Under the pieces are notes generated by a model. That model was given only the letters and a program-made list of their open reading frames with translations. It ran no database searches and was not told where the DNA came from. DNA of 64,000 nt from Octopus vulgaris. Its lineage: Eukaryota. Within the stretch, counting starts at the first letter, position 1; the number at the start of each line of letters is the position of its first letter. The DNA lies in contig OX597817.1 of the NCBI GenBank assembly GCA_951406725.2, positions 59,706,001-59,770,000 on the forward strand. Reading direction: 5' to 3'. Shown here piece after piece: positions 29,991 to 64,000 of this stretch. A program made the position numbers and the translations under genes.

Positions 29991-31561
29991 TGTGTCAAAA
30001 CTTGAAAATGTGTGTGTGTGCATGTGTACGCATGTGTATATAAACTCGCATTTGTATGTGTATAAAAAAAAGTATGTATATTTGTGTGTGTGTGCATGTG
30101 TACAAACTCACAAAGGTGTATGTGTGTGTATGCACAAAAGGTGTTGCTCCTTTCACCATCTGTGATGGCTATTCAGCTAGTTACATTTATCCCTTCGTAG
30201 TTAAAAGATTAAATCACAATCAAAAATGGAAATTATAATTGTGGCCAATGCCAGTGTCACCTGACTGGTTCTCATACTGGTGGGTCATTGCCAGTGCCGC
30301 CTGACTGGCTCCTCATGCCGGTGGCATGTAAAAAGCACCATCCAAATGTGGTCAATGCCAGACCCCTCGCCCTGACTGGCTCCTGTGCTGGTAGCACGTA
30401 GAAGGCAACATCTGAATGTAGCTATTGCCAGTGCTGCTTGACTGGCTCCTCATGCCGGTGGCATGTAAAAGGTACCTGCTACACTCTTGGAGTGGTTGGC
30501 ATTAGGAAGGGCATCCAGCTGTTGAAACATTGCCAGATCGGATTGGAGCCTGGTGCGGCCTCCTGGCTTGCCAGTCTCCAGTCAAACCGTCCAACCCATG
30601 CCAGCATGGAAAGCAAACATTAAACGATGATGATGATGATGACAAGGCAGTGGTATTTGTTGTTATAATTTTGATTCAGAGGAAGAAATGTGTGTGTGTG
30701 TGTGATGGTCTGTCCCACTGAGAATGATATACAAGCTTCCAGTTTGATCAGCAAAATTGTCTACTCATCATGCTCAGGTGGATTGCAACTGTGCCTCCCC
30801 TTGATATATTTCTCTTTGATGTGAATCTGAATAACAAAGTCTAGTGGATGGCAAGTAATGGATGCTGTACATGATACATCACCATTTAATGTCTGTGTTC
30901 CTTTCTGGTATGGACTGGACACTTTGACCAGGATCTGACAGTTCCAAGCATGACATTGTCCTCTAGTTTCTGCTTTCGTTGGATGCCCTTCCTAATCTCA
31001 CCAATCACTTTTCGGTGCTTTTTTTCATGGTACCATTGAGGTCATCATGCAGCTCACATGACGAAAACCCAAGGCAGGACGGGCAGTTTAGTAAAGTATT
31101 ATGGGATGGAAGTAGGGGCGACTGGGGTCTTGTAGAGGGGCTACACAGCTGTTCACAGGGATGAGAATGATACATTCCTAATTTATTAAAAGTTCCTCAT
31201 CTTGGACTGATAGAAAACAAAGATTTGGTAAATCTTAGCAACTGTGAATGAGGAAGGGAGATAAATCCAGAAATGGTGAACTTTTTTTACATGTATTTGG
31301 ATTAGTGAAGACTTTGCCTTTTCTCTTTTGACACTTATTTTCATCTAAAATAAGACAATCTGACTGACAGACAAATTTCCATTCACTAATATGTTATAGA
31401 ACCACTGCACTGAGTCTTCTACCTGCGCATATGGCCTAATTTGACAGCTACACTGTTTCGATACTCAACATTCTTCAGCTAGATTTTTTTTCATTCAGTT
31501 GATGTCTACAGACATAATGTCTGTTTCTCAGCTTTTGACTTTTGCAATTCTTCTCTTCCAG

Positions 31562-31660
31562 TGCCTCCATTAAAAGTGTCTGCTGGCACCAACAAACGTC
31601 TGCAACTTCCCAAGAATAAAATTTTTATTACCGCATATGTTATGGATGAGCCATTAGAAG
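31562..31660 (+). CDS. KIAA0319L: PKD cassette copy 1, exon A (PKD1 N-part)
   Basis: LPPLKVSAGTNKRLQLPKNKIFITAYVMDEPLE; resembles human AAVR VSAGESVQITLPKNEVQLNAYVLQEP (recalled). Confidence 0.92.
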
Positions 31661-31701
31661 GTAAATCATGGATGACTATTTTAATCTAATATTGCTTTTG
31701 T

Positions 31702-31757
<56 letters not shown>

Positions 31758-31776
31758 CTTGCTTTTCTAATTGCAG

Positions 31777-31880
31777 GAAAGGAGTTCCATTACAAATGGT
31801 CAATGATAACATTCCCTAAAGGTGCTGAGAAACAAGGGTCAATGACTGGACCAGACAGTCAGACATTTATTCTCAAAGAT
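31777..31880 (+). CDS. KIAA0319L: PKD cassette copy 1, exon B
   Basis: GKEFHYKWSMITFPKGAEKQGSMTGPDSQTFILKD; AG/GT boundaries. Confidence 0.92.
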
Positions 31881-33961
31881 GTAAGTGGATTGCCAATTTA
31901 CTCTCCCTCTCTTTGTCTTTCTCTCCCTTTCTTTCTCTCTCTCTTTCTCTCCCTCTCTCATTGTATGAATTAATTGACTGACAAGGGACTAAGAATTATG
32001 TAACCAACATCATTAACATCGCAGTTTGTTTCTGCAGTGTACTCAGATTTTAAAAGCTCTGAAGAAGCTATCGGATGTTGCCCAAGCTCTCAGCTCTGAG
32101 AGCATTGCTTCTTTTAGCAGAAACATCTGTAAGCCAATGAAGCTGATTATGTATTTTCAGTTCTTGTCATTCAATCAATTTATATTATGCTCTCTACTTT
32201 ACTCTAAAGCATATCTTTATTGAGTCCTAACATCAGGTTGTCTCACTATGTCTATGCAAAATCATCACAAATATGCACACAAGAATTGGTAATTCTGAAA
32301 CATGGTATTGATTTTTTTTTTAATATTCCATGTTGAGGATCTTTCAGCCCCACCCGACTTATTATTCTCTACATACACGGAAGATATTAATGTGACTGAT
32401 TTTGCATCTCAAACATCTGAAATCAGTGTCTGCGAGAAAATCCTGGTCGGAGACAATATGCAAAAAGATTGGGTTCCATTTGCTCTCAATATTTCTCATT
32501 TCTTTTGGTTAGTGTTTTTTAGGAGCAGAGGCACAGCTGTGTGCTTAAGAAATTTACTCTTCAACCACATAGATTTTGGTTCAGTGCCACTGTGTGGCAC
32601 CTTGGGCAAGTGCCATCTTCTATAGCTCCAGGCTGACCAAAGCCTTGTGAGTGGATTTGGCAGACAGAAATGAAAATAAATCTGTCCTATATATCTTCCT
32701 CATCATCTTCTTCCATTTTAACATCCATTTTCTGTGCTGCTATGCATTGGATGGCTTGACAGGACCCAACAAGCCACAGGGCTGCACCATGTCCCTTTGT
32801 CTGCACTGGCATCATCTCTATAGCTGGATGACCTTCCTAATGCTAGCAGTTGGACTGGTGGGGGGAAGCTTGTTTTCATGCCACCAGCACTAGTGAGATT
32901 GCCGACTAACTGGGAAGACAGGAAAACACCCCGCCTAAACAGCGTGTGCCTGGGGGAGTTGGTTTTACACTAGGTGTTGGTGGTGGTTAAAGTTTGGAAG
33001 GAGGGACAAGTCCAGATGTGTTACTATGGTGAATATAAATATTTGCCCCACATTATATAAGAGTGGATGGGACTAGCTAGGAAGTAAGAAGAGATGGTTG
33101 TTATGGTGAGCCAGTGCAAACCCTCTAGGAGCCAGAAAAGATATGGATGAGGAGGAGAAAGAAGGGGGAGAGTGACAACAGATGGTTAGAGATAGGGGTT
33201 AGAAGTGAAGGCGGTGACAAACGAGTGGGAGTGCAGCTTGGTGGGAAGTAGCAGTATTGAGGGAAGGGGTAAGGGGAGAGATAATAAAGGCTGAAGGATA
33301 ACAGATCAGGAAGTAGGGGACAATGATCAAGGAGTGGAAGGGAGGGAGACATGATGATGGTATGTAAATGTGGCCATGGTTAGTGGACATGGTAGCTGAT
33401 GGAGGAGGGCATTGGGAATGAAAGCAGATATGAGATGGAGAGTCACTGGAGGGAGAGATAGGAGGGAATTGGTGAACATGGGAAAGGATGAGGATGGAAA
33501 TGCAGGCTGGAGGCAGTGACTGGTAACGCAAAGAGTTAGGGGATGTGATGGTATGTGTGCCAAGGGGGTGGGGGGTGGGGAAAGAGTGATGTGGGGAATG
33601 TTTGATGGAGCAGAATGAGCATAGGAACAGGGCCTAGCATGCACCCATAGACAATGCTTTTAGGACATGCGTGCGTGTGTGTGTGTTTGTATCTCCTTGT
33701 TGTGACTTTCTGTAATAACTGTAAATTCATTCATTTCCAATATTCTGTGGAATCATCTGTGGCCAGGGAGAAATGTTACTTTGCTTGGAAGCAAGGGAGG
33801 GTTGGCCACAGAAAGGGCATTTGGCCATAGAAAATCCGCCTCACTAGTTTCTTCTTCACTTTTTAACCTTGAAGAAAAGAAATATGTGCATTTTTTTGTC
33901 TTTTTTTTGTGTGTAGTGTATTATGATTGTTTAATTACTAACTTATTATTTTAATATTTAG

Positions 33962-34049
33962 CTTGTTGCTGGTCTTTACACCTTGAAACTTGAAGTCACT
34001 GGAAACAACCGAGCTGGTGAAGCCTATGTCAATGTAACTGTTATCCCAC
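33962..34049 (+). CDS. KIAA0319L: PKD cassette copy 1, exon C (PKD1 end)
   Basis: LVAGLYTLKLEVTGNNRAGEAYVNVTVIP. Confidence 0.92.
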
Positions 34050-34761
34050 GTAAGTAATGAAAATAACCACCTGCATTGTGTTGTGTTGCTCTCATTAGAC
34101 GGAATGGTCAGAAATGGTTAAGAAGCTTTCTTGACAATCGCAAGGTCCTACTTCTTGGCATTTTGAGCAAATGTCTTTTACTGTAGCTTCACATCAAGAC
34201 AAGCCTTCTGAGTGAAATTGGGTTGATTGAAACTGTAGGGAAGCCCATCAAACAAATCATATTTGTAATTCAATCCTTTAGCATTCAGGGGCATTTTGTC
34301 TGTTTTTACATTCTGAGTTCAAATCCCACCAATGTCGACTTTGTCTTTCATCCTTCCAGGGTTGATGGAATCAACTAGACTCTCCTCCACTAAAATTTCA
34401 GGCTTTATCCCTTATCACAGAAAAGACTTTAATTATTATCAAGGCTATTAATTGCTATATTAATTAGCAGGGATTTTATCTTGAGGTTTGGTGACAACAA
34501 TTCTCCTCAAATCTCAAGAATCTTTCTTAGGATTCTCAAAGAATATGGAATGGTACTTTTCTGCAGGTTGACATTGTGAGTCTCAGTTCCAATAGTTTTC
34601 AGTCTTTTTGGTAACATTTTCAGTGTTGTGCCAAGAGCATCCTTTACCACAGGAAGGAACTTTTGAAATTTTTGTCTTCCACAATTTCTTCTTCTCTTTG
34701 ATTAGTCCCAGATATTTCTCAATTTTCTCTAAATATTATCATTATTATTATTATTATTTAG

Positions 34762-34851
34762 CAAAGAGGATTAATAAACCCCCAGTCGCTATAATTAAAC
34801 CAACATCTCTCCAGATCAAGTTACCTACATCTGCTATCCTTGACGGCTCAG
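34762..34851 (+). CDS. KIAA0319L: PKD cassette copy 1, exon D (PKD2 start)
   Basis: PKRINKPPVAIIKPTSLQIKLPTSAILDGS. Confidence 0.92.
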
Positions 34852-35035
34852 GTGAGTAGACAGGCAGACACCACTGTCTTATGTAGATTTCTATGTATGT
34901 GTATCTGTGTATCTGTGTGTGTGTGTGTGCATGTATGTGTGTCTATGTGTAGGTTTTTTTTTACATTTTATTCAGCTATAATATGTATTGAATAAATACT
35001 AATGCTAAGTACTAATACTACTAATTCTGTGTGTC

Positions 35036-35070
<35 letters not shown>

Positions 35071-36651
35071 CTGACTGCTTGTATTTTCTCATATATTTGT
35101 GTGTGTGTATATATATATCTTTCATTTATTCATTTAAATGTACAGAGTTCACAGGAAATGGTACAGCATCATGGTGCTGTTAAACTGGGTGGTTTGTTAA
35201 ATGTCTCACCTGAAAATGTGGACAAAGAAAACATGAATAATGTCTTTGTGGATTTTCATGCTTCTTCCTCTATGTCTAAAAATTATTGAATAAAAGCCTT
35301 TTATATTGTTGTTCAGTTACATATGGCATAAACCCACCTGATGGCACTTGCTTGTAGCGAATCTCAACACCTCCTCCTCTTGAAGACGCTTAAATGATGT
35401 TAGTGTTCTGTTTAAATCTGTGCCCTGACACAGCTTCACCATCTTCTCTTTCTCATACTGAGGTAGCCATGTATCTCCTGCACAGCAAAAGACCTGTCTC
35501 AGTCCGGCTATCATACTCTAACCCCTCATCACCTGTCATCTCCCTTAGTATGACACCACCTTCAGTTGAGGGGTCTTGTCATGGTGTTAGGAAGGACATC
35601 ATCCAGCTGTGGAAATCCTGGCAAAATGAATGTTGGAGCTTGGTGCAGTCCTCTAACTCCCAAGCTCCTGTCAAACTGTCCAACCCATGCCAGTATGGAA
35701 AACGGACATTAAATGACAATGGTAGGAAATTAAAAAACTAAAAGTTGGTTCATATATTCAGTGAAAAACAAAAAATTAAACATTTAGCTAATGACTAATG
35801 TTACTTTCAATTGGAATTATGGAAGATAACTCAAGACATTTCAGGATTTATATGGGGTTCTTCAGCAGAAATGTTTTATTTACTGAATATACAGAATTTG
35901 TTGTTGTGGAGAGAAAGGTATATAATTGTCTGTCTCTGGAACTGATGAATCCTTGAATAATTCTTTTCCTGATCACATTTCAGTTTGTTTAAACTGAAAA
36001 ACCAATCTTCTCAATTTGACATCAACTCAACATAAACCACATCAATCAAAACTAGTCTGGGAAGCATCAAAGTTACTTCTCCTCCTCTCACTTACATTCC
36101 ATGCCACTACACTCCCATGCTTGCACACCTCCACACACCCCAAGAAACCACATGCACCCTATACCACCATACCCCTGCCGATCTCTATTCACAGAATCCA
36201 GTCTCGTCTGGATTTAACAGTCTCTATCTTAGTCGTCCACCGTTCATTCTTATGATGACATGTACACACCACCCTACCTCTTCCTTCCTTTTTAACCCTT
36301 ACAGCTACATTCCCACCTAGCCCCTAACCTTTCTTTCCAAGCACTTTTTCTCGTTCTTTCCTCATACATTCGTTTTTTTCCTGAAGAACTAATCTCTGAA
36401 ACATGGAGACAGTTTCCCTCATTAAGTGTTAAACATCATTGGTTATAAGGTTTCCCTTCCATGTTGTCTTCTTCAAGGCAGTGCCCCAGCATGGCCGCAG
36501 TCCAATAATTGAAACAAGTAAAAGGTAAAAGACCATTGTCTTTGCTCTGGGGATAGAATTTCATTTGCCCTGCAAAGGTTTGTCATGTGAATGCTTGTCC
36601 CCTGCTCCAATTGCTGTTACTAACGGCACTTTCTTGCTTCCATATTTGCAG

Positions 36652-36784
36652 ACAGCACAGATGACATGAAAGTCGTCAAGTATAAATGGGAAGAGGTTAG
36701 TGGTCCCATCAATGACCGACCCATCGAAAGTAATGCATCCATGTTGAAACTCAATCATCTGGAACCAGGGAAATATCAGTTTAA
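36652..36784 (+). CDS. KIAA0319L: PKD cassette copy 1, exon E
   Basis: DSTDDMKVVKYKWEEVSGPINDRPIESNASMLKLNHLEPGKYQF. Confidence 0.92.
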
Positions 36785-37504
36785 GTAAGTAAATTCCATC
36801 TCGTCTTCATTTTTTTCCATGTTAAATGGAAATAAGTCATTTTTCACTTTGATTTTCTCTTCATCTTTCATGTTTTGAATGCATTTAATACTTGTGTTTT
36901 GAGTTGTTATGTAAGATAACCATTACATAATAATATTACCCTCATCAGTCAACATTTTAAAATATAAAGATATATAAAAATCTGGCCTGTATTTAGTAGT
37001 TGTCTGGATAGTCTTAGAAACCCACCAAAGTACAAAGAAGGTGGAGGGAGATAGGTTGAGAAAGGTGTGTGTAAGAGGTAGGGGAAATATGAGTAAATAA
37101 ATATATTATTAAACAGGCAATAAAGCCTAATTGCAGAGATGAAATAAAAAGAACGCAGAAAAAGAAAAAAGAAAGAACAGTAACTGATAAACATTAGACA
37201 CCAAGTGATAGACAAAAAATATAGACAGGAGGGTGCCAAATATAACATCTAATTACTCATAAAATAACTGAAAAAAAAATGAAGGAGTTTCAGCCATTTC
37301 TAATGGATCATAGCATCTTTGACAATTCTTTTTGTGCCTTATAATTTAACACACTCGGCAGTAAAATTTCCACTTATTTTTATTTTCCTAAAATTTTTGT
37401 TGTGTCTTGCAACCTTTTCAAAATCCAAAAATGAAATCTCTGACAATGTTTGTAGTATCATTGACTTTCTATAGAACAGATGTAAACACACCCACACACA
37501 CATT

Positions 37505-37551
<47 letters not shown>

Positions 37552-38081
37552 CACTGCTGAGTGGTTGGTGTTAGGAAGGGCATTCAGCAGTAAAAATCCT
37601 GTCAAGACAGTCACGGAATTCTGGTGCAGGCTTCTGCGCCTGGCTGGCTCTTGTCAAACCATCCCACCCATGTTAGCATGGAAGGCGGATATTAAACAGT
37701 GATGATGATGAAATACATAAGCATATATACATGTATATTCTCACATATATGTACAAACACATACAACTGTGCATATACACACATACAAGCTAAGAAGAAT
37801 AGTAGTGATGGGGTCTCTGGAACAATTGCTTGATACAGTAGAAACTTTTGTATCATTCAAACATACTGGAAATGTTACCATTAACCATTCTGGCCTGAGG
37901 ATTGCCCTAAGCATGAAACTTTTGAGAAATTAGTTGTGAAGTGACTGGACCTAACGACATAGAATATTTACTGTCCTTTACTCTACCACATTTGAGGAAT
38001 GTGTGTTTTTAAGTATAAATATGTATTTTTGTATACATAGATACATACACACACGTTTATAAAATTCATTTTTATTTTCAG

Positions 38082-38146
38082 GTTAACCGTGACTGATTCT
38101 GATGGTGCCACAAATTCCACTTTAGCTAATGTTACCGCTATTAAAG
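38082..38146 (+). CDS. KIAA0319L: PKD cassette copy 1, exon F (PKD2 end)
   Basis: KLTVTDSDGATNSTLANVTAIK; resembles AAVR LTVVDSDGATNSTTANLTV (recalled); ends phase 1. Confidence 0.92.
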
Positions 38147-40635
38147 GTTTGTATATTTCCATTTCTTTTACAAATTATACACAAGGCTGTTGAGTTTCAT
38201 TTCCTGAATATTAAAATAATGCTTTACATGAGCCAACCAGTTTTTTTATAAGTTTGTATTTGTAAAACTAAACTGAAGTAAACCAGAACACAAAACATCT
38301 GGAGGCCCCCAACTCTTACCTGCATTCCAAGCAAGGTATTTTTGTTTCATTCCACTGGTATTCATATGTCAAAGCTTAAACTGTTTATTGGAGATTATAA
38401 ACAAAGAAAGGCGCAGGCATGGCTGCGTGGCAAGAAGCTTGCTTCCCAACCACATGGTCCCAGGTTCAATCCCACTGTATAGCACTTTGGGCAAGTATCT
38501 TCTATTATAGCCTTGGGCCAACCAAAACCTTGTGAGTGGATTTGGTAGATGGAAACTGAAAGAAGCCTGTCGTTTATGTGTATATATGTTTGTGTGTCTG
38601 TGTTTCACCCCATACCATCATTTGACAACCGATGTTGGTGTGTTTACATCCCCGTAACTTAGCAGTTTGGCAAAAGAGATTGATAGAATAAATACTAGGC
38701 TTATAAAGAATAAGTCCTGAGGTCGATTTGTTCGGCTAAAGGTGGTGCTCCAGCATGGCCACAGTCAATTGACTGAAATGAGTAAAAGAAAATAAAAGAA
38801 TAAAGATGCTGCTTTTTGCTCAGACTACATTGAGGACACGTGGAATGACATCTTCACACTCACTTAAACACACACACACACACACATAACAAGCTTTTTC
38901 TCAGTTTCATTTCTTAGTCCCACTCACAAGGCATTGTTTGGCCTAAAACTACGACAGAAAACTCTTGGCCAAGGTGCCACCACATAGCAGGACTGAAAAC
39001 CTCAACCAGGATCCTGTCAGAATGTCCAACTCATACCAGCATGGAAAGCAGGTGGGAAATGATGATAATACACACAACAGATACGTGGGATGAAGTAGTG
39101 AAGGCCAAAGACAAAGGACCAAGATATCTGGTGCCTTGCTGTACTCGGGAGACCTCTTCACCACAGCTGAATTGATATCCTAAGCCACATTGGTTAATTG
39201 CTCCCCTCCCAGCTGAAGGGGGTTTTGTCTTGCAAGTTATTTGGTGACCCTGGTGGTACTGGCACCACCTAAGAAGCACCTGTGCCGGTGCCATGTAAAA
39301 AGCACTCAATACACTGTGTAAAGCAAACCCAGTCATAGAAATTATGCCAAGACAGATGGTTGGAATGTGGTGCAGCTCTTCAGCCTTGCCAGCTCTGGTG
39401 AAACTGTCCAACCCATGCCAGCAAGGAAAGCAGACATTAAATAATGATGATGATGATCATTATCATTTAATGTTCATTTTCCATGCTAGCTTTGGTTGAA
39501 TGGTTTGATGATCCAACATGCAATAGGGCCGTGTGTCAAGTTCCAGTACCTGCTACACTCTTGGAGTGGTTGGCATTAGGAAGGGCATCCAGCTGTTGAA
39601 ACATTGCCAGATCGGATTGGAGCCTGGTGCGGCCTCCTGGCTTGCCAGTCTCCAGTCAAACCGTCCAACCCATGCCAGCATGGAAAGCAAACATTAAACG
39701 ATGATGATGATGATGACAAGGCAGTGGTATTTGTTGTTATAATTTTGATTCAGAGGAAGAAATGTGTGTGTGTGTGTGATGGTCTGTCCCACTGAGAATG
39801 ATATACAAGCTTCCAGTTTGATCAGCAAAATTGTCTACTCATCATGCTCAGGTGGATTGCAACTGTGCCTCCCCTTGACATATTTCTCTTTGATGTGAAT
39901 CTGAATAACAAAGTCTAGTGGATGGCAAGTAATGGATGCTGTACATGATACATCACCATTTAATGTCTGTGTTCCTTTCTGGTATGGACTGGACACTTTG
40001 ACCAGGATCTGACAGTTCCAAGCATGACATTGTCCTCTAGTTTCTGCTTTCGTTGGATGCCCTTCCTAATCTCACCAATCACTTTTCGGTGCTTTTTTTC
40101 ATGGTACCATTGAGGTCATCATGCAGCTCACATGACGAAAACCCAAGGCAGGACGGGCAGTTTAGTAAAGTATTATGGGATGGAAGTAGGGGCGACTGGG
40201 GTCTTGTAGAGGGGCTACACAGCTGTTCACAGGGATGAGAATGATACATTCCTAATTTATTAAAAGTTCCTCATCTTGGACTGATAGAAAACAAAGATTT
40301 GGTAAATCTTAGCAACTGTGAATGAGGAAGGGAGATAAATCCAGAAATGGTGAACTTTTTTTACATGTATTTGGATTAGTGAAGACTTTGCCTTTTCTCT
40401 TTTGACACTTATTTTCATCTAAAATAAGACAATCTGACTGACAGACAAATTTCCATTCACTAATATGTTATAGAACCACTGCACTGAGTCTTCTACCTGC
40501 GCATATGGCCTAATTTGACAGCTACACTGTTTCGATACTCAACATTCTTCAGCTAGATTTTTTTTCATTCAGTTGATGTCTACAGACATAATGTCTGTTT
40601 CTCAGCTTTTGACTTTTGCAATTCTTCTCTTCCAG

Positions 40636-40734
40636 TGCCTCCATTAAAAGTGTCTGCTGGCACCAACAAACGTCTGCAACTTCCCAAGAATGAAATTATT
40701 CTTACCGCATATGTTATGGATGAGCCATTAGAAG
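40636..40734 (+). CDS. KIAA0319L: PKD cassette copy 2, exon A (variant KNEIILTA)
   Basis: Same splice sites; 3 nonsynonymous differences. Confidence 0.9.
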
Positions 40735-42141
40735 GTAAATCAGATTTCAATTTTTCCTTGTTTGTATTTTTTCTTTTTAAATTAATGTTTTCACAGGTGC
40801 AGGCTGGCTGTGTGCTTGAGAAGTTCGCTTCCCTGTCATGTAGTTTTGGGTTCAGCCCCACTGCACAGCACCTTAGGCAGCTGTCTTCTACTATACCCCT
40901 GGGCCAACCAGTACATTGTGAGTGAAAGAAGCAGTGTGTTTATTGTAGTTAAATGTCACTATCATACAAGCAGCGTCCATTCATTTGCAATCTGCTGTGA
41001 AAACCTGTCCAGTTCTTTGGTTTTTCATGTTTGAAGGACTCGAGGGAAATGTTGCCTTGCTTGGAAGCATGGAGAGGATGGTAACAAGGAAAACATACAG
41101 CTGTATAAAATATACTTCAATAAATTTCACCTGACTTCTTGTGCAAGCACGGAAAAGAGGACATTCAAAGCAACCTTTTATTTGATTCCAACCATGCTGG
41201 GACACTGCCTTGAATGAAAATATTTTTCATTGTCTGCTAGGATTGGAATCCAGATCTACTGTAAATCCTGCAGCTGTGGTCACCATTTAGTCAAACGGCT
41301 ATTTTTTTCATGGATGATGTTTCTTGTATGGTTCCGGAATGTCAGCCACAGCGTTTTTCTTCATGTTGTTCAATTTTCGAAGTTTGGATCCTGTGTATTC
41401 TGTTCTCTTCTCTAAAGACCCAGCTGGGCTGGTGGCTTGTGTCGGTTGGCCTCATGGTTACAGTGGAGATAGGGACTGACTGGGACACTGCACCAGGGGT
41501 TGCTCAGGACAACCCAAGCAGATACCCAAGAAATGGTGAATGTAGCAATGCACTGCAATGGCACATGCTTGATGCTTTCATCAAAATCCAATTTTATTTT
41601 CATGGTTTTAGTCAAACGACAACAGGATGTGCTTTCCTTGCATACATCATGGCTATTAATGATGTATACGAGTGTTTTATATCTTGCTTAGCTGAATATA
41701 CTTGCTGTATACAATAGGATATATACACAAGTGTATATAGAAACTCAGTCAAGCCTGAACTGGCTTTACAGCTTGCTCCACCAAATCGTAAACAAATTTG
41801 CAATATCTTTCCATGCATAAAATTTTGAACGAATGAAAAAAGAGAAGAATGAAATGCCATGGAAGAAGTTTGCATATTTCTTTGTTGTTGACATTCGTTT
41901 ATGTTTTCGGTAAAGAATGGGCTGCATTGTAGGTGCGCGCCTGTAAAGGTGTGGCTTGGACTATGTCACTGTGAAGTTACTAAAATAGTTTAGTTATATA
42001 TTATGTAACTGTGAACTTAGCCACCAGACTGAATAAGAATCTGTTAAAATATCTTGGATGAATGCTACAGTTAGTTTGCCTTTTCCTATTTACATTAAGT
42101 ATGATATATGGATGACTATTTTAATCTAATATTGCTTTTGT

Positions 42142-42195
<54 letters not shown>

Positions 42196-42214
42196 CTTGC
42201 TTTTCTAATTGCAG

Positions 42215-42317
42215 GAAAGGAGTTCCATTACAAATGGTCAATGATAACATTCCTAAAGGTGCTGAGAAACAAGGGTCAATGACTGGACCAGACAGTCAGA
42301 CATTTATTCTCAAAGAT
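42215..42317 (+). CDS. KIAA0319L: PKD cassette copy 2, exon B, 1-bp deletion frameshift (103 nt)
   Basis: ATTCCTAAA versus ATTCCCTAAA in the other copies; TGA at 42280-42282. Confidence 0.8.
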
Positions 42318-44401: not shown

Positions 44402-44489
44402 CTTGTTGCTGGTCTTTACACCTTGAAACTTGAAGTCACTGGAAACAACCGAGCTGGTGAAGCCTATGTCAATGTAACTGTTATCCCAC
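44402..44489 (+). CDS. KIAA0319L: PKD cassette copy 2, exon C
   Basis: Same as copy 1. Confidence 0.88.
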
Positions 44490-45476: not shown

Positions 45477-45509
<33 letters not shown>

Positions 45510-47945: not shown

Positions 47946-47989
<44 letters not shown>

Positions 47990-51073: not shown

Positions 51074-51172
51074 TGCCTCCATTAAAAGTGTCTGCTGGCA
51101 CCAACAAACGTCTGCAACTTCCCAAGAATAAAATTTTTATTACCGCATATGTTATGGATGAGCCATTAGAAG
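51074..51172 (+). CDS. KIAA0319L: PKD cassette copy 3, exon A (KNKIFITA)
   Basis: Same as copy 1. Confidence 0.9.
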
Positions 51173-52579: not shown

Positions 52580-52627
<48 letters not shown>

Positions 52628-52646
52628 CTTGCTTTTCTAATTGCAG

Positions 52647-52750
52647 GAAAGGAGTTCCATTACAAATGGTCAATGATAACATTCCCTAAAGGTGCTGAGA
52701 AACAAGGGTCAATGACTGGACCAGACAGTCAGACATTTATTCTCAAAGAT
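52647..52750 (+). CDS. KIAA0319L: PKD cassette copy 3, exon B
   Basis: Intact, 104 nt. Confidence 0.9.
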
Positions 52751-54832
52751 GTAAGTGGATTGCCAATTTACTCTCCCTCTCTTTGTCTTTCTCTCCCTTT
52801 CTTTCTCTCTCTCTTTCTCTCCCTCTCTCATTGTATGAATTAATTGACTGACAAGGGACTAAGAATTATGTAACCAACATCATTAACATCGCAGTTTGTT
52901 TCTGCAGTGTACTCAGATTTTAAAAGCTCTGAAGAAGCTATCGGATGTTGCCCAAGCTCTCAGCTCTGAGAGCATTGCTTCTTTTAGCAGAAACATCTGT
53001 AAGCCAATGAAGCTGATTATGTATTTTCAGTTCTTGTCATTCAATCAATTTATATTATGCTCTCTACTTTACTCTAAAGCATATCTTTATTGAGTCCTAA
53101 CATCAGGTTGTCTCACTATGTCTATGCAAAATCATCACAAATATGCACACAAGAATTGGTAATTCTGAAACATGGTATTGATTTTTTTTTAATATTCCAT
53201 GTTGAGGATCTTTCAGCCCCACCCGACTTATTATTCTCTACATACACGGAAGATATTAATGTGACTGATTTTGCATCTCAAACATCTGAAATCAGTGTCT
53301 GCGAGAAAATCCTGGTCGGAGACAATATGCAAAAAGATTGGGTTCCATTTGCTCTCAATATTTCTCATTTCTTTTGGTTAGTGTTTTTTAGGAGCAGAGG
53401 CACGGCTGTGTGCTTAAGAAATTTACTCTTCAACCACATAGATTTTGGTTCAGTGCCACTGTGTGGCACCTTGGGCAAGTGCCATCTTCTATAGCTCCAG
53501 GCTGACCAAAGCCTTGTGAGTGGATTTGGCAGACAGAAATGAAAATAAATCTGTCCTATATATCTTCCTCATCATCTTCTTCCATTTTAACATCCATTTT
53601 CTGTGCTGCTATGCATTGGATGGCTTGACAGGACCCAACAAGCCACAGGGCTGCACCATGTCCCTTTGTCTGCACTGGCATCATCTCTATAGCTGGATGA
53701 CCTTCCTAATGCTAGCAGTTGGACTGGTGGGGGGAAGCTTGTTTTCATGCCACCAGCACTAGTGAGATTGCCGACTAACTGGGAAGACAGGAAAACACCC
53801 CGCCTAAACAGCGTGTGCCTGGGGGAGTTGGTTTTACACTAGGTGTTGGTGGTGGTTAAAGTTTGGAAGGAGGGACAAGTCCAGATGTGTTACTATGGTG
53901 AATATAAATATTTGCCCCACATTATATAAGAGTGGATGGGACTAGCTAGGAAGTAAGAAGAGATGGTTGTTATGGTGAGCCAGTGCAAACCCTCTAGGAG
54001 CCAGAAAAGATATGGATGAGGAGGAGAAAGAAGGGGGAGAGTGACAACAGATGGTTAGAGATAGGGGTTAGAAGTGAAGGCGGTGACAAACGAGTGGGAG
54101 TGCAGCTTGGTGGGAAGTAGCAGTATTGAGGGAAGGGGTAAGGGGAGAGATAAAAAAGGCTGAAGGATAACAGATCAGGAAGTAGGGGACAATGATCAAG
54201 GAGTGGAAGGGAGGGAGACATGATGGTGGTATGTAAGTGTGGCCATGGTTAGTGGACATGGTAGCTGATGGAGGAGGGCATTGGGAATGAAAGCAGATAT
54301 GAGATGGAGAGTCACTGGAGGGAGAGATAGGAGGGAATTGGTGAACATGGGAAAGGATGAGGATGGAAATGCAGGCTGGAGGCAGTGACTGGTAACGCAA
54401 AGAGTTAGGGGATGTGATGGTATGTGTGCCAAGGGGGGGAGGATGGGGAAAGAGTGATGTGGGGAATATTTGATGGAGCAGAATGAGCATAGGAACAGGG
54501 CCTAGCATGCACCCATAGACAATGCTTTTAGGACATGCGTGCGTGTGTGTGTGTTTGTATCTCCTTGTTGTGACTTTCTGTAATAACTGTAAATTCATTC
54601 ATTTCCAATATTCTGTGGAATCATCTGTGGCCAGGGAGAAATGTTACTTTGCTTGGAAGCAAGGGAGGGTTGGCCACAGAAAGGGCATTTGGCCATAGAA
54701 AATCCGCCTCACTAGTTTCTTCTTCTTCACTTTTTAACCTTGAAGAAAAGAAATATGTGCATTTTTTTGTCTTTTTTTTGTGTGTAGTGTATTATGATTG
54801 TTTAATTACTAACTTATTATTTTAATATTTAG

Positions 54833-54920
54833 CTTGTTGCTGGTCTTTACACCTTGAAACTTGAAGTCACTGGAAACAACCGAGCTGGTGAAGCCTATGT
54901 CAATGTAACTGTTATCCCAC
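54833..54920 (+). CDS. KIAA0319L: PKD cassette copy 3, exon C
   Basis: Same as copy 1. Confidence 0.9.
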
Positions 54921-55632
54921 GTAAGTAATGAAAATAACCACCTGCATTGTGTTGTGTTGCTCTCATTAGACGGAATGGTCAGAAATGGTTAAGAAGCTTT
55001 CTTGACAATCGCAAGGTCCTACTTCTTGGCATTTTGAGCAAATGTCTTTTACTGTAGCTTCACATCAAGACAAGCCTTCTGAGTGAAATTGGGTTGATTG
55101 AAACTGTAGGGAAGCCCATCAAACAAATCATATTTGTAATTCAATCCTTTAGCATTCAGGGGCATTTTGTCTGTTTTTACATTCTGAGTTCAAATCCCAC
55201 CAATGTCGACTTTGTCTTTCATCCTTCCAGGGTTGATGGAATCAACTAGACTCTCCTCCACTAAAATTTCAGGCTTTATCCCTTATCACAGAAAAGACTT
55301 TAATTATTATCAAGGCTATTAATTGCTATATTAATTAGCAGGGATTTTATCTTGAGGTTTGGTGACAACAATTCTCCTCAAATCTCAAGAATCTTTCTTA
55401 GGATTCTCAAAGAATATGGAATGGTACTTTTCTGCAGGTTGACATTGTGAGTCTCAGTTCCAATAGTTTTCAGTCTTTTTGGTAACATTTTCAGTGTTGT
55501 GCCAAGAGCATTCTTTACCACAGGAAGGAACTTTTGAAATTTTTGTCTTCCACAATTTCTTCTTCTCTTTGATTAGTCCCAGATATTTCTCAATTTTCTC
55601 TAAATATTATCATTATTATTATTATTATTTAG

Positions 55633-55722
55633 CAAAGAGGATTAATAAACCCCCAGTCGCTATAATTAAACCAACATCTCTCCAGATCAAGTTACCTACA
55701 TCTGCTATCCTTGACGGCTCAG
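55633..55722 (+). CDS. KIAA0319L: PKD cassette copy 3, exon D
   Basis: Same as copy 1. Confidence 0.9.
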
Positions 55723-55908
55723 GTGAGTAGACAGGCAGACACCACTGTCTTATGTAGATTTCTATGTATGTGTATCTGTGTATCTGTGTGTGTGTGTGTG
55801 CATGTATGTGTGTCTATGTGTAGGTTTTTTTTTTTACATTTTATTCAGCTATAATATGTATTGAATAAATACTAATGCTAAGTACTAATACTACTAATTC
55901 TGTGTGTC

Positions 55909-55941
<33 letters not shown>

Positions 55942-57522
55942 CTGACTGCTTGTATTTTCTCATATATTTGTGTGTGTGTATATATATATCTTTCATTTAT
56001 TCATTTAAATGTACAGAGTTCACAGGAAATGGTACAGCATCATGGTGCTGTTAAACTGGGTGGTTTGTTAAATGTCTCACCTGAAAATGTGGACAAAGAA
56101 AACATGAATAATGTCTTTGTGGATTTTCATGCTTCTTCCTCTATGTCTAAAAATTATTGAATAAAAGCCTTTTATATTGTTGTTCAGTCACATATGGCAT
56201 AAACCCACCTGATGGCACTTGCTTGTAGCGAATCTCAACACCTCCTCCTCTTGAAGACGCTTAAATGATGTTAGTGTTCTGTTTAAATCTGTGCCCTGAC
56301 ACAGCTTCACCATCTTCTCTTTCTCATACTGAGGTAGCCATGTATCTCCTGCACAGCAAAAGACCTGTCTCAGTCCGGCTATCATACTCTAACCCCTCAT
56401 CACCTGTCATCTCCCTTAGTATGACACCACCTTCAGTTGAGGGGTCTTGTCATGGTGTTAGGAAGGACATCATCCAGCTGTGGAAATCCTGGCAAAATGA
56501 ATGTTGGAGCTTGGTGCAGTCCTCTAACTCCCAAGCTCCTGTCAAACTGTCCAACCCATGCCAGTATGGAAAACGGACATTAAATGACAATGGTAGGAAA
56601 TTAAAAAACTAAAAGTTGGTTCATATATTCAGTGAAAAACAAAAAATTAAACATTTAGCTAATGACTAATGTTACTTTCAATTGGAATTATGGAAGATAA
56701 CTCAAGACATTTCAGGATTTATATGGGGTTCTTCAGCAGAAATGTTTTATTTACTGAATATACAGAATTTGTTGTTGTGGAGAGAAAGGTATATAATTGT
56801 CTGTCTCTGGAACTGATGAATCCTTGAATAATTCTTTTCCTGATCACATTTCAGTTTGTTTAAACTGAAAAACCAATCTTCTCAATTTGACATCAACTCA
56901 ACATAAACCACATCAATCAAAACTAGTCTGGGAAGCATCAAAGTTACTTCTCCTCCTCTCACTTACATTCCATGCCACTACACTCCCATGCTTGCACACC
57001 TCCACACACCCCAAGAAACCACATGCACCCTATACCACCATACCCCTGCCGATCTCTATTCACAGAATCCAGTCTCGTCTGGATTTAACAGTCTCTATCT
57101 TAGTCGTCCACCGTTCATTCTTATGATGACATGTACACACCACCCTACCTCTTCCTTCCTTTTTAACCCTTACAGCTACATTCCCACCTAGCCCCTAACC
57201 TTTCTTTCCAAGCACTTTTTCTCGTTCTTTCCTCATACATTCGTTTTTTTCCTGAAGAACTAATCTCTGAAACATGGAGACAGTTTCCCTCATTAAGTGT
57301 TAAACATCATTGGTTATAAGGTTTCCCTTCCATGTTGTCTTCTTCAAGGCAGTGCCCCAGCATGGCTGCAGTCCAATAATTGAAACAAGTAAAAGGTAAA
57401 AGACCATTGTCTTTGCTCTGGGGATAGAATTTCATTTGCCCTGCAAAGGTTTGTCATGTGAATGCTTGTCCCCTGCTCCAATTGCTGTTACTAACGGCAC
57501 TTTCTTGCTTCCATATTTGCAG

Positions 57523-57655
57523 ACAGCACAGATGACATGAAAGTCGTCAAGTATAAATGGGAAGAGGTTAGTGGTCCCATCAATGACCGACCCATCGAAA
57601 GTAATGCATCCATGTTGAAACTCAATCATCTGGAACCAGGGAAATATCAGTTTAA
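57523..57655 (+). CDS. KIAA0319L: PKD cassette copy 3, exon E
   Basis: Same as copy 1. Confidence 0.9.
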
Positions 57656-58374
57656 GTAAGTAAATTCCATCTCGTCTTCATTTTTTTCCATGTTAAATGG
57701 AAATAAGTCATTTTTCACTTTGATTTTCTCTTCATCTTTCATGTTTTGAATGCATTTAATACTTGTGTTTTGAGTTGTTATGTAAGATAACCATTACATA
57801 ATAATATTACCCTCATCAGTCAACATTTTAAAATATAAAGATATATAAAAATCTGGCCTGTATTTAGTAGTTGTCTGGATAGTCTTAGAAACCCACCAAA
57901 GTACAAAGAAGGTGGGGGAGATAGGTTGAGAAAGGTGTGTGTAAGAGGTAGGGGAAATATGAGTAAATAAATATATTATTAAACAGGCAATAAAGCCTAA
58001 TTGCAGAGATGAAATAAAAAGAACGCAGAAAAAGAAAAAAGAAAGAACAGTAACTGATAAACATTAGACACCAAGTGATAGACAAAAAATATAGACAGGA
58101 GGGTGCCAAATATAACATCTAATTACTCATAAAATAACTGAAAAAAAAATGAAGGAGTTTCAGCCATTTCTAATGGATCATAGCATCTTTGACAATTCTT
58201 TTTGTGCCTTATAATTTAACACACTCGGCAGTAAAATTTCCACTTATTTTTATTTTCCTAAAATTTTTGTTGTGTCTTGCAACCTTTTCAAAATCCAAAA
58301 ATGAAATCTCTGACAATGTTTGTAGTATCATTGACTTTCTATAGAACAGATGTAAACACACCCACACACACATT

Positions 58375-58419
<45 letters not shown>

Positions 58420-58949
58420 CACTGCTGAGTGGTTGGTGTTAGGAAGGGCATTCAGCAGTAAAAATCCTGTCAAGACAGTCACGGAATTCTGGTGCAGGCT
58501 TCTGCACCTGGCTGGCTCTTGTCAAACCATCCCACCCATGTTAGCATGGAAGGCGGATATTAAACAGTGATGATGATGAAATACATAAGCATATATACAT
58601 GTATATTCTCACATATATGTACAAACACATACAACTGTGCATATACACACATACAAGCTAAGAAGAATAGTAGTGATGGGGTCTCTGGAACAATTGCTTG
58701 ATACAGTAGAAACTTTTGTATCATTCAAACATACTGGAAATGTTACCATTAACCATTCTGGCCTGAGGATTGCCCTAAGCATGAAACTTTTGAGAAATTA
58801 GTTGTGAAGTGACTGGACCTAACGACATAGAATATTTACTGTCCTTTACTCTACCACATTTGAGGAATGTGTGTTTTTAAGTATAAATATGTATTTTTGT
58901 ATACATAGATACATACACACACGTTTATAAAATTCATTTTTATTTTCAG

Positions 58950-59014
58950 GTTAACCGTGACTGATTCTGATGGTGCCACAAATTCCACTTTAGCTAATGT
59001 TACCGCTATTAAAG
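58950..59014 (+). CDS. KIAA0319L: PKD cassette copy 3, exon F
   Basis: Same as copy 1. Confidence 0.9.
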
Positions 59015-61505
59015 GTTTGTATATTTCCATTTCTTTTACAAATTATACACAAGGCTGTTGAGTTTCATTTCCTGAATATTAAAATAATGCTTTACATGAG
59101 CCAACCAGTTTTTTTATAAGTTTGTATTTGTAAAACTAAACTGAAGTAAACCAGAACACAAAACATCTGGAGGCCCCCAACTCTTACCTGCATTCCAAGC
59201 AAGGTATTTTTGTTTCATTCCACTGGTATTCATATGTCAAAGCTTAAACTGTTTATTGGAGATTATAAACAAAGAAAGGCGCAGGCATGGCTGTGTGGCA
59301 AGAAGCTTGCTTCCCAACCACATGGTCCCAGGTTCAATCCCACTGTATAGCACTTTGGGCAAGTATCTTCTATTATAGCCTTGGGCCAACCAAAACCTTG
59401 TGAGTGGATTTGGTAGATGGAAACTGAAAGAAGCCTGTCGTTTATGTGTATATATGTTTGTGTGTCTGTGTTTCACCCCATACCATCATTTGACAACCGA
59501 TGTTGGTGTGTTTACATCCCCGTAACTTAGCAGTTTGGCAAAAGAGATTGATAGAATAAATACTAGGCTTATAAAGAATAAGTCCTGAGGTCGATTTGTT
59601 CGGCTAAAGGTGGTGCTCCAGCATGGCCACAGTCAATTGACTGAAATGAGTAAAAGAAAATAAAAGAATAAAGATGCTGCTTTTTGCTCAGACTACATTG
59701 AGGACACGTGGAATGACATCTTCACACTCACTTAAACACACACACACACACACATAACAAGCTTTTTCTCAGTTTTCATTTCTTAGTCCTACTCACAAGG
59801 CATTGTTTGGCCTAAAACTACGACAGAAAACTCTTGGCCAAGGTGCCACCACATAGCAGGACTGAAAACCTCAACCAGGATCCTGTCAGAATGTCCAACT
59901 CATACCAGCATGGAAAGCAGGTGGGAAATGATGATAATACACACAACAGATACGTGGGATGAAGTAGTGAAGGCCAAAGACAAAGGACCAAGATATCTGG
60001 TGCCTTGCTGTACTCGGGGAGACCTCTTCACCACAGCTGAATTGATATCCTAAGCCACATTGGTTAATTGCTCCCCTCCCAGCTGAAGGGGGTTTTGTCT
60101 TGCAAGTTATTTGGTGACCCTGGTGGTACTGGCACCACCTAAGAAGCACCTGTGCCGGTGCCATGTAAAAAGCACTCAATACACTGTGTAAAGCAAACCC
60201 AGTCATAGAAATTATGCCAAGACAGATGGTTGGAATGTGGTGCAGCTCTTCAGCCTTGCCAGCTCTGGTGAAACTGTCCAACCCATGCCAGCAAGGAAAG
60301 CAGACATTAAATAATGATGATGATGATCATTATCATTTAATGTTCATTTTCCATGCTAGCTTTGGTTGAATGGTTTGATGATCCAACATGCAATAGGGCC
60401 GTGTGTCAAGTTCCAGTACCTGCTACACTCTTGGAGTGGTTGGCATTAGGAAGGGCATCCAGCTGTTGAAACATTGCCAGATCGGATTGGAGCCTGGTGC
60501 GGCCTCCTGGCTTGCCAGTCTCCAGTCAAACCGTCCAACCCATGCCAGCATGGAAAGCAAACATTAAACGATGATGATGATGATGACAAGGCAGTGGTAT
60601 TTGTTGTTATATTTTTGATTCAGAGGAAGAAATGTGTGTGTGTGTGTGATGGTCTGTCCCACTGAGAATGATATACAAGCTTCCAGTTTGATCAGCAAAA
60701 TTGTCTACTCATCATGCTCAGGTGGATTGCAACTGTGCCTCCCCTTGACATATTTCTCTTTGATGTGAATCTGAATAACAAAGTCTAGTGGATGGCAAGT
60801 AATGGATGCTGTACATGATACATCACCATTTAATGTCTGTGTTCCTTTCTGGTATGGACTGGACACTTTGACCAGGATCTGACAGTTCCAAGCATGACAT
60901 TGTCCTCTAGTTTCTGCTTTCGTTGGATGCCCTTCCTAATCTCACCAATCACTTTTCGGTGCTTTTTTTCATGGTACCATTGAGGTCATCATGCAGCTCA
61001 CATGACGAAAACCCAAGGCAGGACGGGCAGTTTAGTAAAGTATTATGGGATGGAAGTAGGGGCGACTGGGGTCTTGTAGAGGGGCTACACAGCTGTTCAC
61101 AGGGATGAGAATGATACATTCCTAATTTATTAAAAGTTCCTCATCTTGGACTGATAGAAAACAAAGATTTGGTAAATCTTAGCAACTGTGAATGAGGAAG
61201 GGAGATAAATCCAGAAATGGTGAACTTTTTTTACATGTATTTGGATTAGTGAAGACTTTGCCTTTTCTCTTTTGACACTTATTTTCATCTAAAATAAGAC
61301 AATCTGACTGACAGACAAATTTCCATTCACTAATATGTTATAGAACCACTGCACTGAGTCTTCTACCTGCGCATATGGCCTAATTTGACAGCTACACTGT
61401 TTCGATACTCAACATTCTTCAGCTAGATTTTTTTTCATTCAGTTGATGTCTACAGACATAATGTCTGTTTCTCAGCTTTTGACTTTTGCAATTCTTCTCT
61501 TCCAG

Positions 61506-61604
61506 TGCCTCCATTAAAAGTGTCTGCTGGCACCAACAAACGTCTGCAACTTCCCAAGAATAAAATTTTTATTGCCGCATATGTTATGGATGAGCCATTA
61601 GAAG
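61506..61604 (+). CDS. KIAA0319L: PKD cassette copy 4, exon A (variant KNKIFIAA)
   Basis: ACC to GCC at 61574. Confidence 0.9.
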
Positions 61605-63010
61605 GTAAATCAGATTTCAATTTTTCCTTGTTTGTATTTTTTCTTTTTAAATTAATGTTTTCACAGGTGCAGGCTGGCTGTGTGCTTGAGAAGTTCGCTT
61701 CCCTGTCATGTAGTTTTGGGTTCAGCCCCACTGCACAGCACCTTAGGCAGCTGTCTTCTACTATACCCCTGGGCCAACCAGTACATTGTGAGTGAAAGAA
61801 GCAGTGTGTTTATTGTAGTTAAATGTCACTATCATACAAGCAGCGTCCATTCATTTGCAATCTGCTGTGAAAACCTGTCCAGTTCTTTGGTTTTTCATGT
61901 TTGAAGGACTCGAGGGAAATGTTGCCTTGCTTGGAAGCATGGAGAGGATGGTAACAAGGAAAACATACAGCTGTATAAAATATACTTCAATAAATTTCAC
62001 CTGACTTCTTGTGCAAGCACGGAAAAGAGGACATTCAAAGCAACCTTTTATTTGATTCCAACCATGCTGGGACACTGCCTTGAATGAAAATATTTTTCAT
62101 TGTCTGCTAGGATTGGAATCCAGATCTACTGTAAATCCTGCAGCTGTGGTCACCATTTAGTCAAACGGCTATTTTTTTCATGGATGATGTTTCTTGTATG
62201 GTTCCGGAATGTCAGCCACAGCGTTTTTCTTCATGTTGTTCAATTTTCGAAGTTTGGATCCTGTGTATTCTGTTCTCTTCTCTAAAGACCCAGCTGGGCT
62301 GGTGGCTTGTGTCGGTTGGCCTCATGGTTACAGTGGAGATAGGGACTGACTGGGACACTGCACCAGGGGTTGCTCAGGACAACCCAAGCAGATACCCAAG
62401 AAATGGTGAATGTAGCAATGCACTGCAATGGCACATGCTTGATGCTTTCATCAAAATCCAATTTTATTTTCATGGTTTTAGTCAAACGACAACAGGATGT
62501 GCTTTCCTTGCATACATCATGGCTATTAATGATGTATACGAGTGTTTTATATCTTGCTTAGCTGAATATACTTGCTGTATACAATAGGATATATACACAA
62601 GTGTATATAGAAACTCAGTCAAGCCTGAACTGGCTTTACAGCTTGCTCCACCAAATCGTAAACAAATTTGCAATATCTTTCCATGCATAAAATTTTGAAC
62701 GAATGAAAAAAGAGAAGAATGAAATGCCATGGAAGAAGTTTGCATATTTCTTTGTTGTTGACATTCGTTTATGTTTTCGGTAAAGAATGGGCTGCATTGT
62801 AGGTGCGCGCCTGTAAAGGTGTGGCTTGGACTATGTCACTGTGAAGTTACTAAAATAGTTTAGTTATATATTATGTAACTGTGAACTTAGCCACCAGACT
62901 GAATAAGAATCTGTTAAAATATCTTGGATGAATGCTACAGTTAGTTTGCCTTTTCCTATTTACATTAAGTATGATATATGGATGACTATTTTAATCTAAT
63001 ATTGCTTTTG

Positions 63011-63051
<41 letters not shown>

Positions 63052-63070
63052 CTTGCTTTTCTAATTGCAG

Positions 63071-63174
63071 GAAAGGAGTTCCATTACAAATGGTCAATGA
63101 TAACATTCCCTAAAGGTGCTGAGAAACAAGGGTCAATGACTGGACCAGACAGTCAGACATTTATTCTCAAAGAT
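63071..63174 (+). CDS. KIAA0319L: PKD cassette copy 4, exon B
   Basis: Intact, 104 nt. Confidence 0.9.
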
Positions 63175-64000
63175 GTAAGTGGATTGCCAATTTACTCTCC
63201 CTCTCTTTGTCTTTCTCTCCCTTTCTTTCTCTCTCTCTTTCTCTCCCTCTCTCATTGTATGAATTAATTGACTGACAAGGGACTAAGAATTATGTAACCA
63301 ACATCATTAACATCGCAGTTTGTTTCTGCAGTGTACTCAGATTTTAAAAGCTCTGAAGAAGCTATCGGATGTTGCCCAAGCTCTCAGCTCTGAGAGCATT
63401 GCTTCTTTTAGCAGAAACATCTGTAAGCCAATGAAGCTGATTATGTATTTTCAGTTCTTGTCATTCAATCAATTTATATTATGCTCTCTACTTTACTCTA
63501 AAGCATATCTTTATTGAGTCCTAACATCAGGTTGTCTCACTATGTCTATGCAAAATCATCACAAATATGCACACAAGAATTGGTAATTCTGAAACATGGT
63601 ATTGATTTTTTTTTTAATATTCCATGTTGAGGATCTTTCAGCCCCACCCGACTTATTATTCTCTACATACACGGAAGATATTAATGTGACTGATTTTGCA
63701 TCTCAAACATCTGAAATCAGTGTCTGCGAGAAAATCCTGGTCGGAGACAATATGCAAAAAGATTGGGTTCCATTTGCTCTCAATATTTCTCATTTCTTTT
63801 GGTTAGTGTTTTTTAGGAGCAGAGGCACGGCTGTGTGCTTAAGAAATTTACTCTTCAACCACATAGATTTTGGTTCAGTGCCACTGTGTGGCACCTTGGG
63901 CAAGTGCCATCTTCTATAGCTCCAGGCTGACCAAAGCCTTGTGAGTGGATTTGGCAGACAGAAATGAAAATAAATCTGTCCTATATATCTTCCTCATCAT

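Follow-up and report, generated by a model that had tools for sequence, protein, structure and literature searches.

A tandem PKD1-PKD2 cassette array in a young, anchorless partial duplicate of an AAVR-like gene fused to the tail of ZNF346 in Octopus vulgaris

KIAA0319L (AAVR) and KIAA0319 are type I membrane proteins of the family PF22352. According to the accessible part of PMC13431526, the single invertebrate gene is older than the split between KIAA0319 and AAVR, making it a co-orthologue of both, and AAVs are dated to ~50 million years. As given in the available sections of PMC6704107, nine PKD1 positions of human AAVR contact AAV5, and PKD2 residues S425, V427 and D429 touch AAV1. Soluble forms have been described for human KIAA0319, which has a minor secreted isoform lacking the transmembrane (TM) segment and a shed ectodomain (PMC3000997, in its accessible part). 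A different class of relevant systems is formed by the chimeras that arise through tandem duplication, which often alter expression in Drosophila (accessible part of PMC5460883). Here we describe an octopus locus that touches on both. The window, i.e. the whole stretch of DNA analysed, comprises 64,000 nucleotides of the Octopus vulgaris assembly (59706001-59770000); coordinates follow its numbering, continued below 1 and above 64000 along the same assembly scaffold, and 400 kb of flanking sequence were compared alongside it.

Self-comparison of the window revealed four head-to-tail units with identical junctions, starting at 30472, 39546, 49985 and 60416, just as an earlier note on this sequence had reported. 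Units 1 and 3 contain six exons of 99+104+88+90+133+65 = 579 nt with phase 1 at either end, and exon F joins exon A of the following unit in frame (G+TG), so that the frame symmetry claimed for the cassette stands. The description of the unit as ~10.4 kb long with six exons totalling 579 nt holds in part: the length is right for units 2 and 3 and not for unit 1, shortened by an intron deletion, and the exon content is right for units 1 and 3. Exon B of unit 2 has 103 nt as assembled, a 1-nt frameshift (CCC to CC at ~42251, in a C run), and unit 4 lacks exons E and F as well as the exon D donor. The array thus consists of three whole cassettes and one PKD1-only cassette, rather than of at least four copies as first counted. 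The exons were correctly recognized as PKD1 and PKD2 of a KIAA0319L/AAVR-like gene, based on PF22352 and on alignment to human AAVR; the parent protein matches PKD1-3 of human AAVR (6nz0_Z) with an E value of 2.8e-88. Searching the assembly returned five copies of exon D and five of exon A, all in this region. Microhomology amounts to 2 bp at the tandem junction, 3 bp at the unit 4 deletion and 1 bp at each of the remaining two deletions.

A search with exon E retrieved three KIAA0319-like proteins, from Octopus vulgaris (1166 aa), O. sinensis (909 aa) and Argonauta (907 aa), and mapping these proteins uncovered two gene copies at the locus. Copy A, which carries the array, begins with exon 1 (20851) and ends with the PKD5 exon (74491), with no exon for the residues past PKD5. 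Gene B (116418-219772), ~96 kb beyond copy A, is intact, has one cassette (186599-197011) and five PKD hits, and runs on into the Cys-rich region. Its TM and tail exons lie beyond a gap (Table 1), and we infer that the scaffold holds the contig bounded by the gaps at -7709 and 221229 in inverted orientation, which would split the real receptor in the assembly. Once this contig is turned, intact ZNF346 comes first, followed after ~28 kb and a repeat insert of ~20 kb by copy A; next are a second set of the last two ZNF346 exons with the ~28 kb, gene B, and the TM and tail exons. A segment of ~130 kb, made up of the 3' end of ZNF346 and the part of the receptor gene that reaches from the promoter to PKD5, occurs twice, which is how a tandem duplication of that size is laid out; its new junction sets the ZNF346 tail exons in frame after PKD5. 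In addition to the cassette array, the first copy bears a 61-kb deletion, two smaller deletions inside it and a second zinc-finger exon. The breakpoints of the array and deletions are sharp, with 1-3 bp of microhomology.

Table 1. Positions of the features of copy A, its array and the neighbouring genes, in window numbering
Feature	Position	Strand	Remarks
CCGGAAGTG motif	20580..20588	+	~270 bp 5' of ATG; identical in gene B
Copy A coding exon 1	20851..20983	+	hydrophobic signal-like segment; Pro to Ser vs gene B
Junction of ~61-kb deletion	22198..22199		intron 1; copy A-specific; takes out alternative Cys-rich exon
Ser/Thr-rich stalk exon	23075..23370	+
Linker exon X	29411..29471	+	phase 1 end
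Unit 1	30472..39545	+	9074 bp
Unit 1 exons	A 31562-31660, B 31777-31880, C 33962-34049, D 34762-34851, E 36652-36784, F 38082-38146	+	exon A derived: E to K, I to F, L to I
Unit 1 intron A-B deletion	31667/31668		1366 bp
Tandem junction	39545..39546		2-bp GT microhomology; recurs at 49984/49985 and 60415/60416
Unit 2	39546..49984	+	10439 bp; exon A ancestral
Unit 2 exons	A 40636-40734, B 42215-42317, C 44402-44489, D 45202-45291, E 47091-47223, F 48520-48584	+
Unit 3	49985..60415	+	10431 bp; intact; exon A derived
Unit 3 exons	A 51074-51172, B 52647-52750, C 54833-54920, D 55633-55722, E 57523-57655, F 58950-59014	+
Unit 4, window part	60416..64000	+	A 61506-61604 (derived, plus T to A), B 63071-63174
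Unit 4, past window	C 65234-65321; deletion at 66123		D without donor; ~4.57-kb deletion, CAG microhomology
Six PKD3-PKD5 exons of copy A	67152-74491		first donor GC, not GT
Fused ZNF346 exons behind copy A	77910, 79962, 80974-81062
Gene B TM and tail exons	-9611..-9811 and -12475..-12618	minus	beyond gap; single-copy in assembly
Intact ZNF346	258723-250090		all 6 exons; last two duplicated behind copy A

The deposited model of copy A (PF22352, E 1.3e-138) has 10 PKD stretches in the order 1212121345, followed by zinc fingers. The exons behind PKD5 correspond to the last finger and the C-terminus of ZNF346 (97-100%), with the zinc-finger exon present twice through a ~2-kb duplication. The phases are compatible with fusion, the PKD5 exon ending in phase 1 and the 93-nt zinc-finger exon being of phase 1-1; a PKD5-ZNF346 fusion transcript is putative, being represented by deposited gene models only. 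Neither of the two copy A models scanned has a TM peak, compared with a peak of 3.05 in the normal protein, and the hydrophobic peak of copy A (2.04 at residue 31 in a hydrophobicity scan, which is not a signal-peptide predictor) is as in the parent. MANEC gave no match in the copy A model nor in two normal octopus proteins and is therefore not diagnostic. Copy A is a truncated, anchorless, chimeric partial duplicate without Cys-rich, TM or tail exons, and the deposited 'KIAA0319' models of 1119-1172 aa do not represent the receptor. The event had been proposed to be a domain amplification rather than a gene duplication; it is both, the amplification lying inside a partial gene duplicate. Nor does the array lengthen a receptor ectodomain in this assembly, as had been suggested, since the gene that carries it has no TM or cytoplasmic exons and the nearby membrane receptor has one cassette. 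The 561 bp upstream of copy A and gene B are 99.6% identical and include the CCGGAAGTG sequence, which we take to be an ETS-type promoter motif; both the promoter region and the reading frame are retained in copy A. Read through full exons, the assembled copy A reaches a stop at codon 412. In units 1-3, the two deposited models that were mapped begin exon B 45 nt further in, which bypasses the frameshift at the cost of a Trp conserved in 97/97 homologues.

All copies are very similar. Substitutions between copy A and gene B amount to 0.14-0.66% by segment (0.15% for the ZNF346 part), and the units differ from each other by 0.06-0.22% outside simple repeats, a likeness far above chance which bears out the suggestion that the amplification is recent. 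The whole range of divergence (0.06-0.66%) lies below the heterozygosity of Octopus vulgaris, given as 1.22% in the available part of bioRxiv 10.1101/2023.05.16.540928. Eight sites set all covering units apart from gene B, indicating that the units descend from one ancestor. Other sites group the units incompatibly (1+2, 1+3+4, 2+3+4 and 1+3), a pattern that unequal crossing-over and conversion would leave, as would mixed polishing. PKD domains were also counted in relatives, as the earlier note had suggested for cephalopod orthologues. In the O. sinensis models there is one cassette, whose protein sequence is identical to that of the gene B cassette. Among 97 animal homologues (from the best 120 of 1544 matches, restricted to 499-1591 aa, leaving out the locus itself and 22 bacterial-type proteins), five PKD hits are found in 95, four in two and more than five in none. 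The five-PKD layout is very stable in animals, hence the amplified version is unusual.

The array was also checked in independent data, namely the contigs of four of 24 listed sequencing runs over one stretch (38050-42335). These are two Octopus vulgaris DNA runs from two studies, one of which may be the source of the assembly, one DNA run of another species and one RNA-like run. In both octopus DNA runs, the main contig bears the three derived exon A letters and accounts for ~85% of the depth: derived versus ancestral letters are covered at 370.7 vs 54.2 and 122.7 vs 18.1, a ratio of 6.8 each, contig depth being a rough guide. The derived letters were not found in the DNA run of the other species. 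As ~85:15 letters are seen twice, the array does not come from one diploid locus. The contigs of both octopus runs end at 39547, at the tandem junction (90/90 and 87/87 letters aligned), and a 467-nt contig of the other species continues past this position. Depth, which had been named as a way to recognize an assembly artefact, and the contig ends at the junction support the array, and we conclude that it is not one. No bridge over the tandem junction is present among the contigs listed, the right side of the junction being a high-copy repeat, and the exon F depth arithmetic is compatible both with a fork and with no fork at this point. With the ancestral form taken as single-copy, the depths imply ~six cassettes in the array for each one in gene B, compared with four assembled, so the array is probably under-assembled. 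As to copy-number variation, both octopus DNA runs give the same 6.8, and the assembly holds five exon A copies. Exon B has no contig cover in any of the three DNA runs, so these contigs are silent on the unit 2 frameshift.

Over 1926 nt, the coding differences of copy A comprise 6 amino-acid-changing and 1 silent, as neutrality predicts (expected amino-acid-changing fraction 0.764, p=0.48). Signs of decay are the change of the PKD3 exon donor from GT to GC and the loss of the exon D donor in unit 4. The residues gained by the derived letters also speak for decay or neutrality: Lys, Phe, Ile and Ala are seen in 2, 0, 0 and 0 of 96 homologues, respectively, and the Leu that was replaced is conserved in 95 of the 96. 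In the RNA-like run, whose RNA status is a guess and which represents one sample, a 291-nt contig corresponds exactly to exons A+B+C, with ancestral exon A and no frameshift. The derived exon A letters were not found in the contigs of this run, which may lose minor alleles or forms, though DNA is ~6:1 derived. Derived letters should dominate if copy A were expressed like gene B, which suggests that copy A is at most minor there, or that the animal differs. The contig bears the copy A-type Gln letter in exon B, which may be a gene B polymorphism. It starts abruptly with the first base of exon A, the neighbouring intron being uncovered; splicing from F to A would produce such a break, which may point to a second upstream exon such as F. 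The other break, after exon C, was considered as a sign of array splicing and rejected, given that isoform X4 of O. sinensis already skips PKD2 in the normal gene. No separate contig for the short splice from A to B', which the deposited models use in units 1-3, was found in the RNA-like run (the bin depth equals that of one contig), although such contigs lose minor forms.

Taken together, we favour, with some reservation, the reading that the array sits in a young, anchorless partial duplicate fused to the ZNF346 tail, which is probably no lengthened receptor but a by-product that is weakly expressed and decaying. With the intact receptor untouched, copy A is likely under little constraint. 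Its history would have begun with the tandem duplication that made the chimera; a single microhomology-mediated event may then have doubled the PKD1+PKD2 cassette, and unequal crossing-over and conversion could have multiplied and mixed the units, up to the ~six estimated from depth. The product predicted for a fully spliced transcript would start with a signal peptide and a stalk, continue with ten PKD domains and finish with one or two zinc fingers; its fate would be secretion or retention in the secretory pathway. The kept frame had been considered as proof of selection and was set aside, two introns sharing a phase with a probability of 0.39-0.66.

Some observations sit uneasily with a by-product. 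The same high dosage of a very young duplicate recurs in two studies, and drift is a poor explanation for it if the animals are unrelated. Three substitutions fall inside 10 nt of PKD1 (p=0.0016 if independent), promoter and frame are kept, and the RNA contig has both the Gln letter and the break at exon A. In a first alternative, which we hold to be unlikely, copy A would be a functional new gene, encoding a secreted, multivalent PKD1/PKD2 decoy or competitor for a ligand of the receptor ectodomain, with the growth of the array and the PKD1 changes being selected. The signal-like segment and the retained promoter region and frame are consistent with it, as is the equal dosage of ~6.8 in both studies. 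The changed residues correspond to human AAVR positions 325, 327, 328, 329 and 365. Three of the four clustered changes occupy the alternating positions 325, 327 and 329 of what appears to be one strand, with presumed exposure, and in an alignment by eye these match the AAV1-touching PKD2 residues S425, V427 and D429 (PMC6704107, in its accessible part). The minor secreted isoform of human KIAA0319 (PMC3000997, likewise) points in the same direction. Against a decoy stand the neutral ratio of amino-acid-changing to silent differences, the GC donor, the absence of derived letters from the RNA contig and the deposited models, which splice around the conserved Trp; the tight cluster could also have arisen as one multi-nucleotide mutation. 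When 464 kb were searched for a sequence that could have served as template for the three clustered changes, the units themselves were the only matches.

A virus as the driver, proposed in the earlier note, finds no support: none of the changed PKD1 residues falls on the nine AAV5-contact positions listed in the accessible part of PMC6704107, and a literature search on octopus endogenous parvoviruses returned nothing relevant by title or abstract start. For the octopus AAVR-like ectodomain, neither a ligand nor a virus is known to us. In its strongest form, namely that of a brand-new gene spread within one octopus species and encoding a secreted decoy of at least ten PKD domains, with PKD1+PKD2 multiplied and one PKD1 face changed, the decoy reading is in our view rather improbable. 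If true, it would mean an accordion caught at birth, and would suggest that, in molluscs, some ligand or pathogen engages the AAVR-type ectodomain.

Copy A might also act at the level of RNA or dosage only, through a low-level chimeric transcript or a retained protein that modulates the parent receptor or ZNF346. The promoter region is kept, the 3' end of ZNF346 is carried along, and tandem chimeras in Drosophila often shift expression (accessible part of PMC5460883), but any expression of copy A is putative, and we judge this proposal improbable.

Still less credence is due to the view that copy A or the array arose in assembly, as a false haplotype duplication or through read loops. The contig is inverted and flanked by gaps, divergence is below the partly accessible heterozygosity estimate, no listed contig bridges the junction, and the unit 2 frameshift lies in a C run. 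Against these points, derived letters make up ~85% in two runs, contigs stop at the junction in both octopus runs and not in the other species, and the units bear distinct deletions with microhomology. Details such as the number of units or the letters of unit 2 may be wrong in the assembly. Finally, it is very doubtful that the membrane receptor itself is accordion-extended, e.g. in other haplotypes through crossover of the homologous stretches behind the cassette (66121-77359 vs 196885-208114, ~11 kb, 98%) that would join the array to the TM exons. These stretches exist, and depth suggests more cassettes than are assembled; on the other side, the assembly shows a single cassette in gene B and ZNF346 exons at the end of copy A, and no animal homologue among the 97 exceeds five PKD hits.

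The locus is real and recent, and no description of it was found in the literature searched, which covered few subscription journals; the kind of event, a tandem-duplication chimera, is already known. What the locus adds is a pile-up of gene-birth steps within a single, very young copy: a partial duplication, a fusion, an amplification of domains and losses. Should copy A be the decaying by-product that we favour, it provides a clean case of relaxed constraint letting symmetric exon cassettes expand; if it is expressed and fixed, it offers a route to the natural ligand of AAVR-family PKD1/PKD2 in an invertebrate.

Compared with known systems, the 5' part of copy A derives from the KIAA0319L/AAVR and KIAA0319 family, whose five PKD domains are kept in gene B. 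Copy A differs from these proteins in its ten PKD domains (1212121345), in the lack of Cys-rich region, TM segment and tail, and in ending with zinc fingers. From ZNF346/JAZ it takes the last finger only, doubled and placed behind a signal-like segment, making a zinc-finger function unlikely. Like the tandem-duplication chimeras of Drosophila yakuba (PMC5460883, in its accessible part), it combines the 5' end of one gene with the 3' end of its neighbour on the same strand, with both parents intact; in contrast to them, it stacks the 61-kb deletion, the array, two deletions and a doubled exon at <0.7% divergence. With intragenic accordion amplification, the array shares head-to-tail, frame-symmetric units with a single common junction. 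The nearest precedent for the predicted product is the secreted human KIAA0319 (accessible part of PMC3000997), likewise a soluble PKD ectodomain; there, the soluble form comes from splicing or proteolysis of one gene, whereas copy A is a separate duplicated locus with amplified domains.

The contig of about 229 kb that holds the window appears to be inverted in its scaffold; it lies between two assembly gaps, one at -7709 and the other at 221229 (numbered as in the window, continued beyond both ends). The true receptor is split because of this inversion, which is also why the deposited models of the parent gene, gene B (P0008 and P0009), stop short of the transmembrane exon.

The ZNF346 side is separated from copy A, the truncated receptor duplicate, by an insert of about 20 kb, which has no counterpart in front of gene B. 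In the corrected order, with the contig turned round, the termini of the insert are inverted copies of each other (about 500 bp, 94% identity) and its interior is mostly palindromic. Either a fold-back element or an inverted duplication could account for this structure, or part of it could be an artefact.

The insert and the LINE copies (window coordinates, continued beyond both ends)
Feature	Position	Strand	Remarks
~20-kb insert	1-11100 plus flanks (-7609; 221329-222713)		at (AT)n site
LINE, intact-looking	3700-7760	+	
LINE ORF1	3780-4595	+	271 aa; weak match, Torus/CCCH-type
LINE ORF2	4345-7668	+	1107 aa; endonuclease and reverse transcriptase
LINE, second copy	-2340..-6373	inverted relative to first	98.5% identity to window copy

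Downstream of the ZNF346 parent lies a 3.6-kb tandem duplication (99.8%; 225886-233126 in continued coordinates), which is not common to the duplicated segment.

Copy A contains 748 bp (26320-27067), with CAGG at each boundary, that gene B lacks, a presence/absence difference suggesting that the two derive from different haplotypes. In exon A, the first cassette exon, the derived letters of units 1, 3 and 4 create an inverted repeat with two perfectly matching 7-bp arms 1 nt apart (31615-31629 in unit 1), which may indicate a single multi-nucleotide mutation.

In O. sinensis, the annotated isoform X4 (P0022) of the normal gene skips PKD2 entirely, and its join is identical to the one that the deletion in unit 4 would force in copy A.
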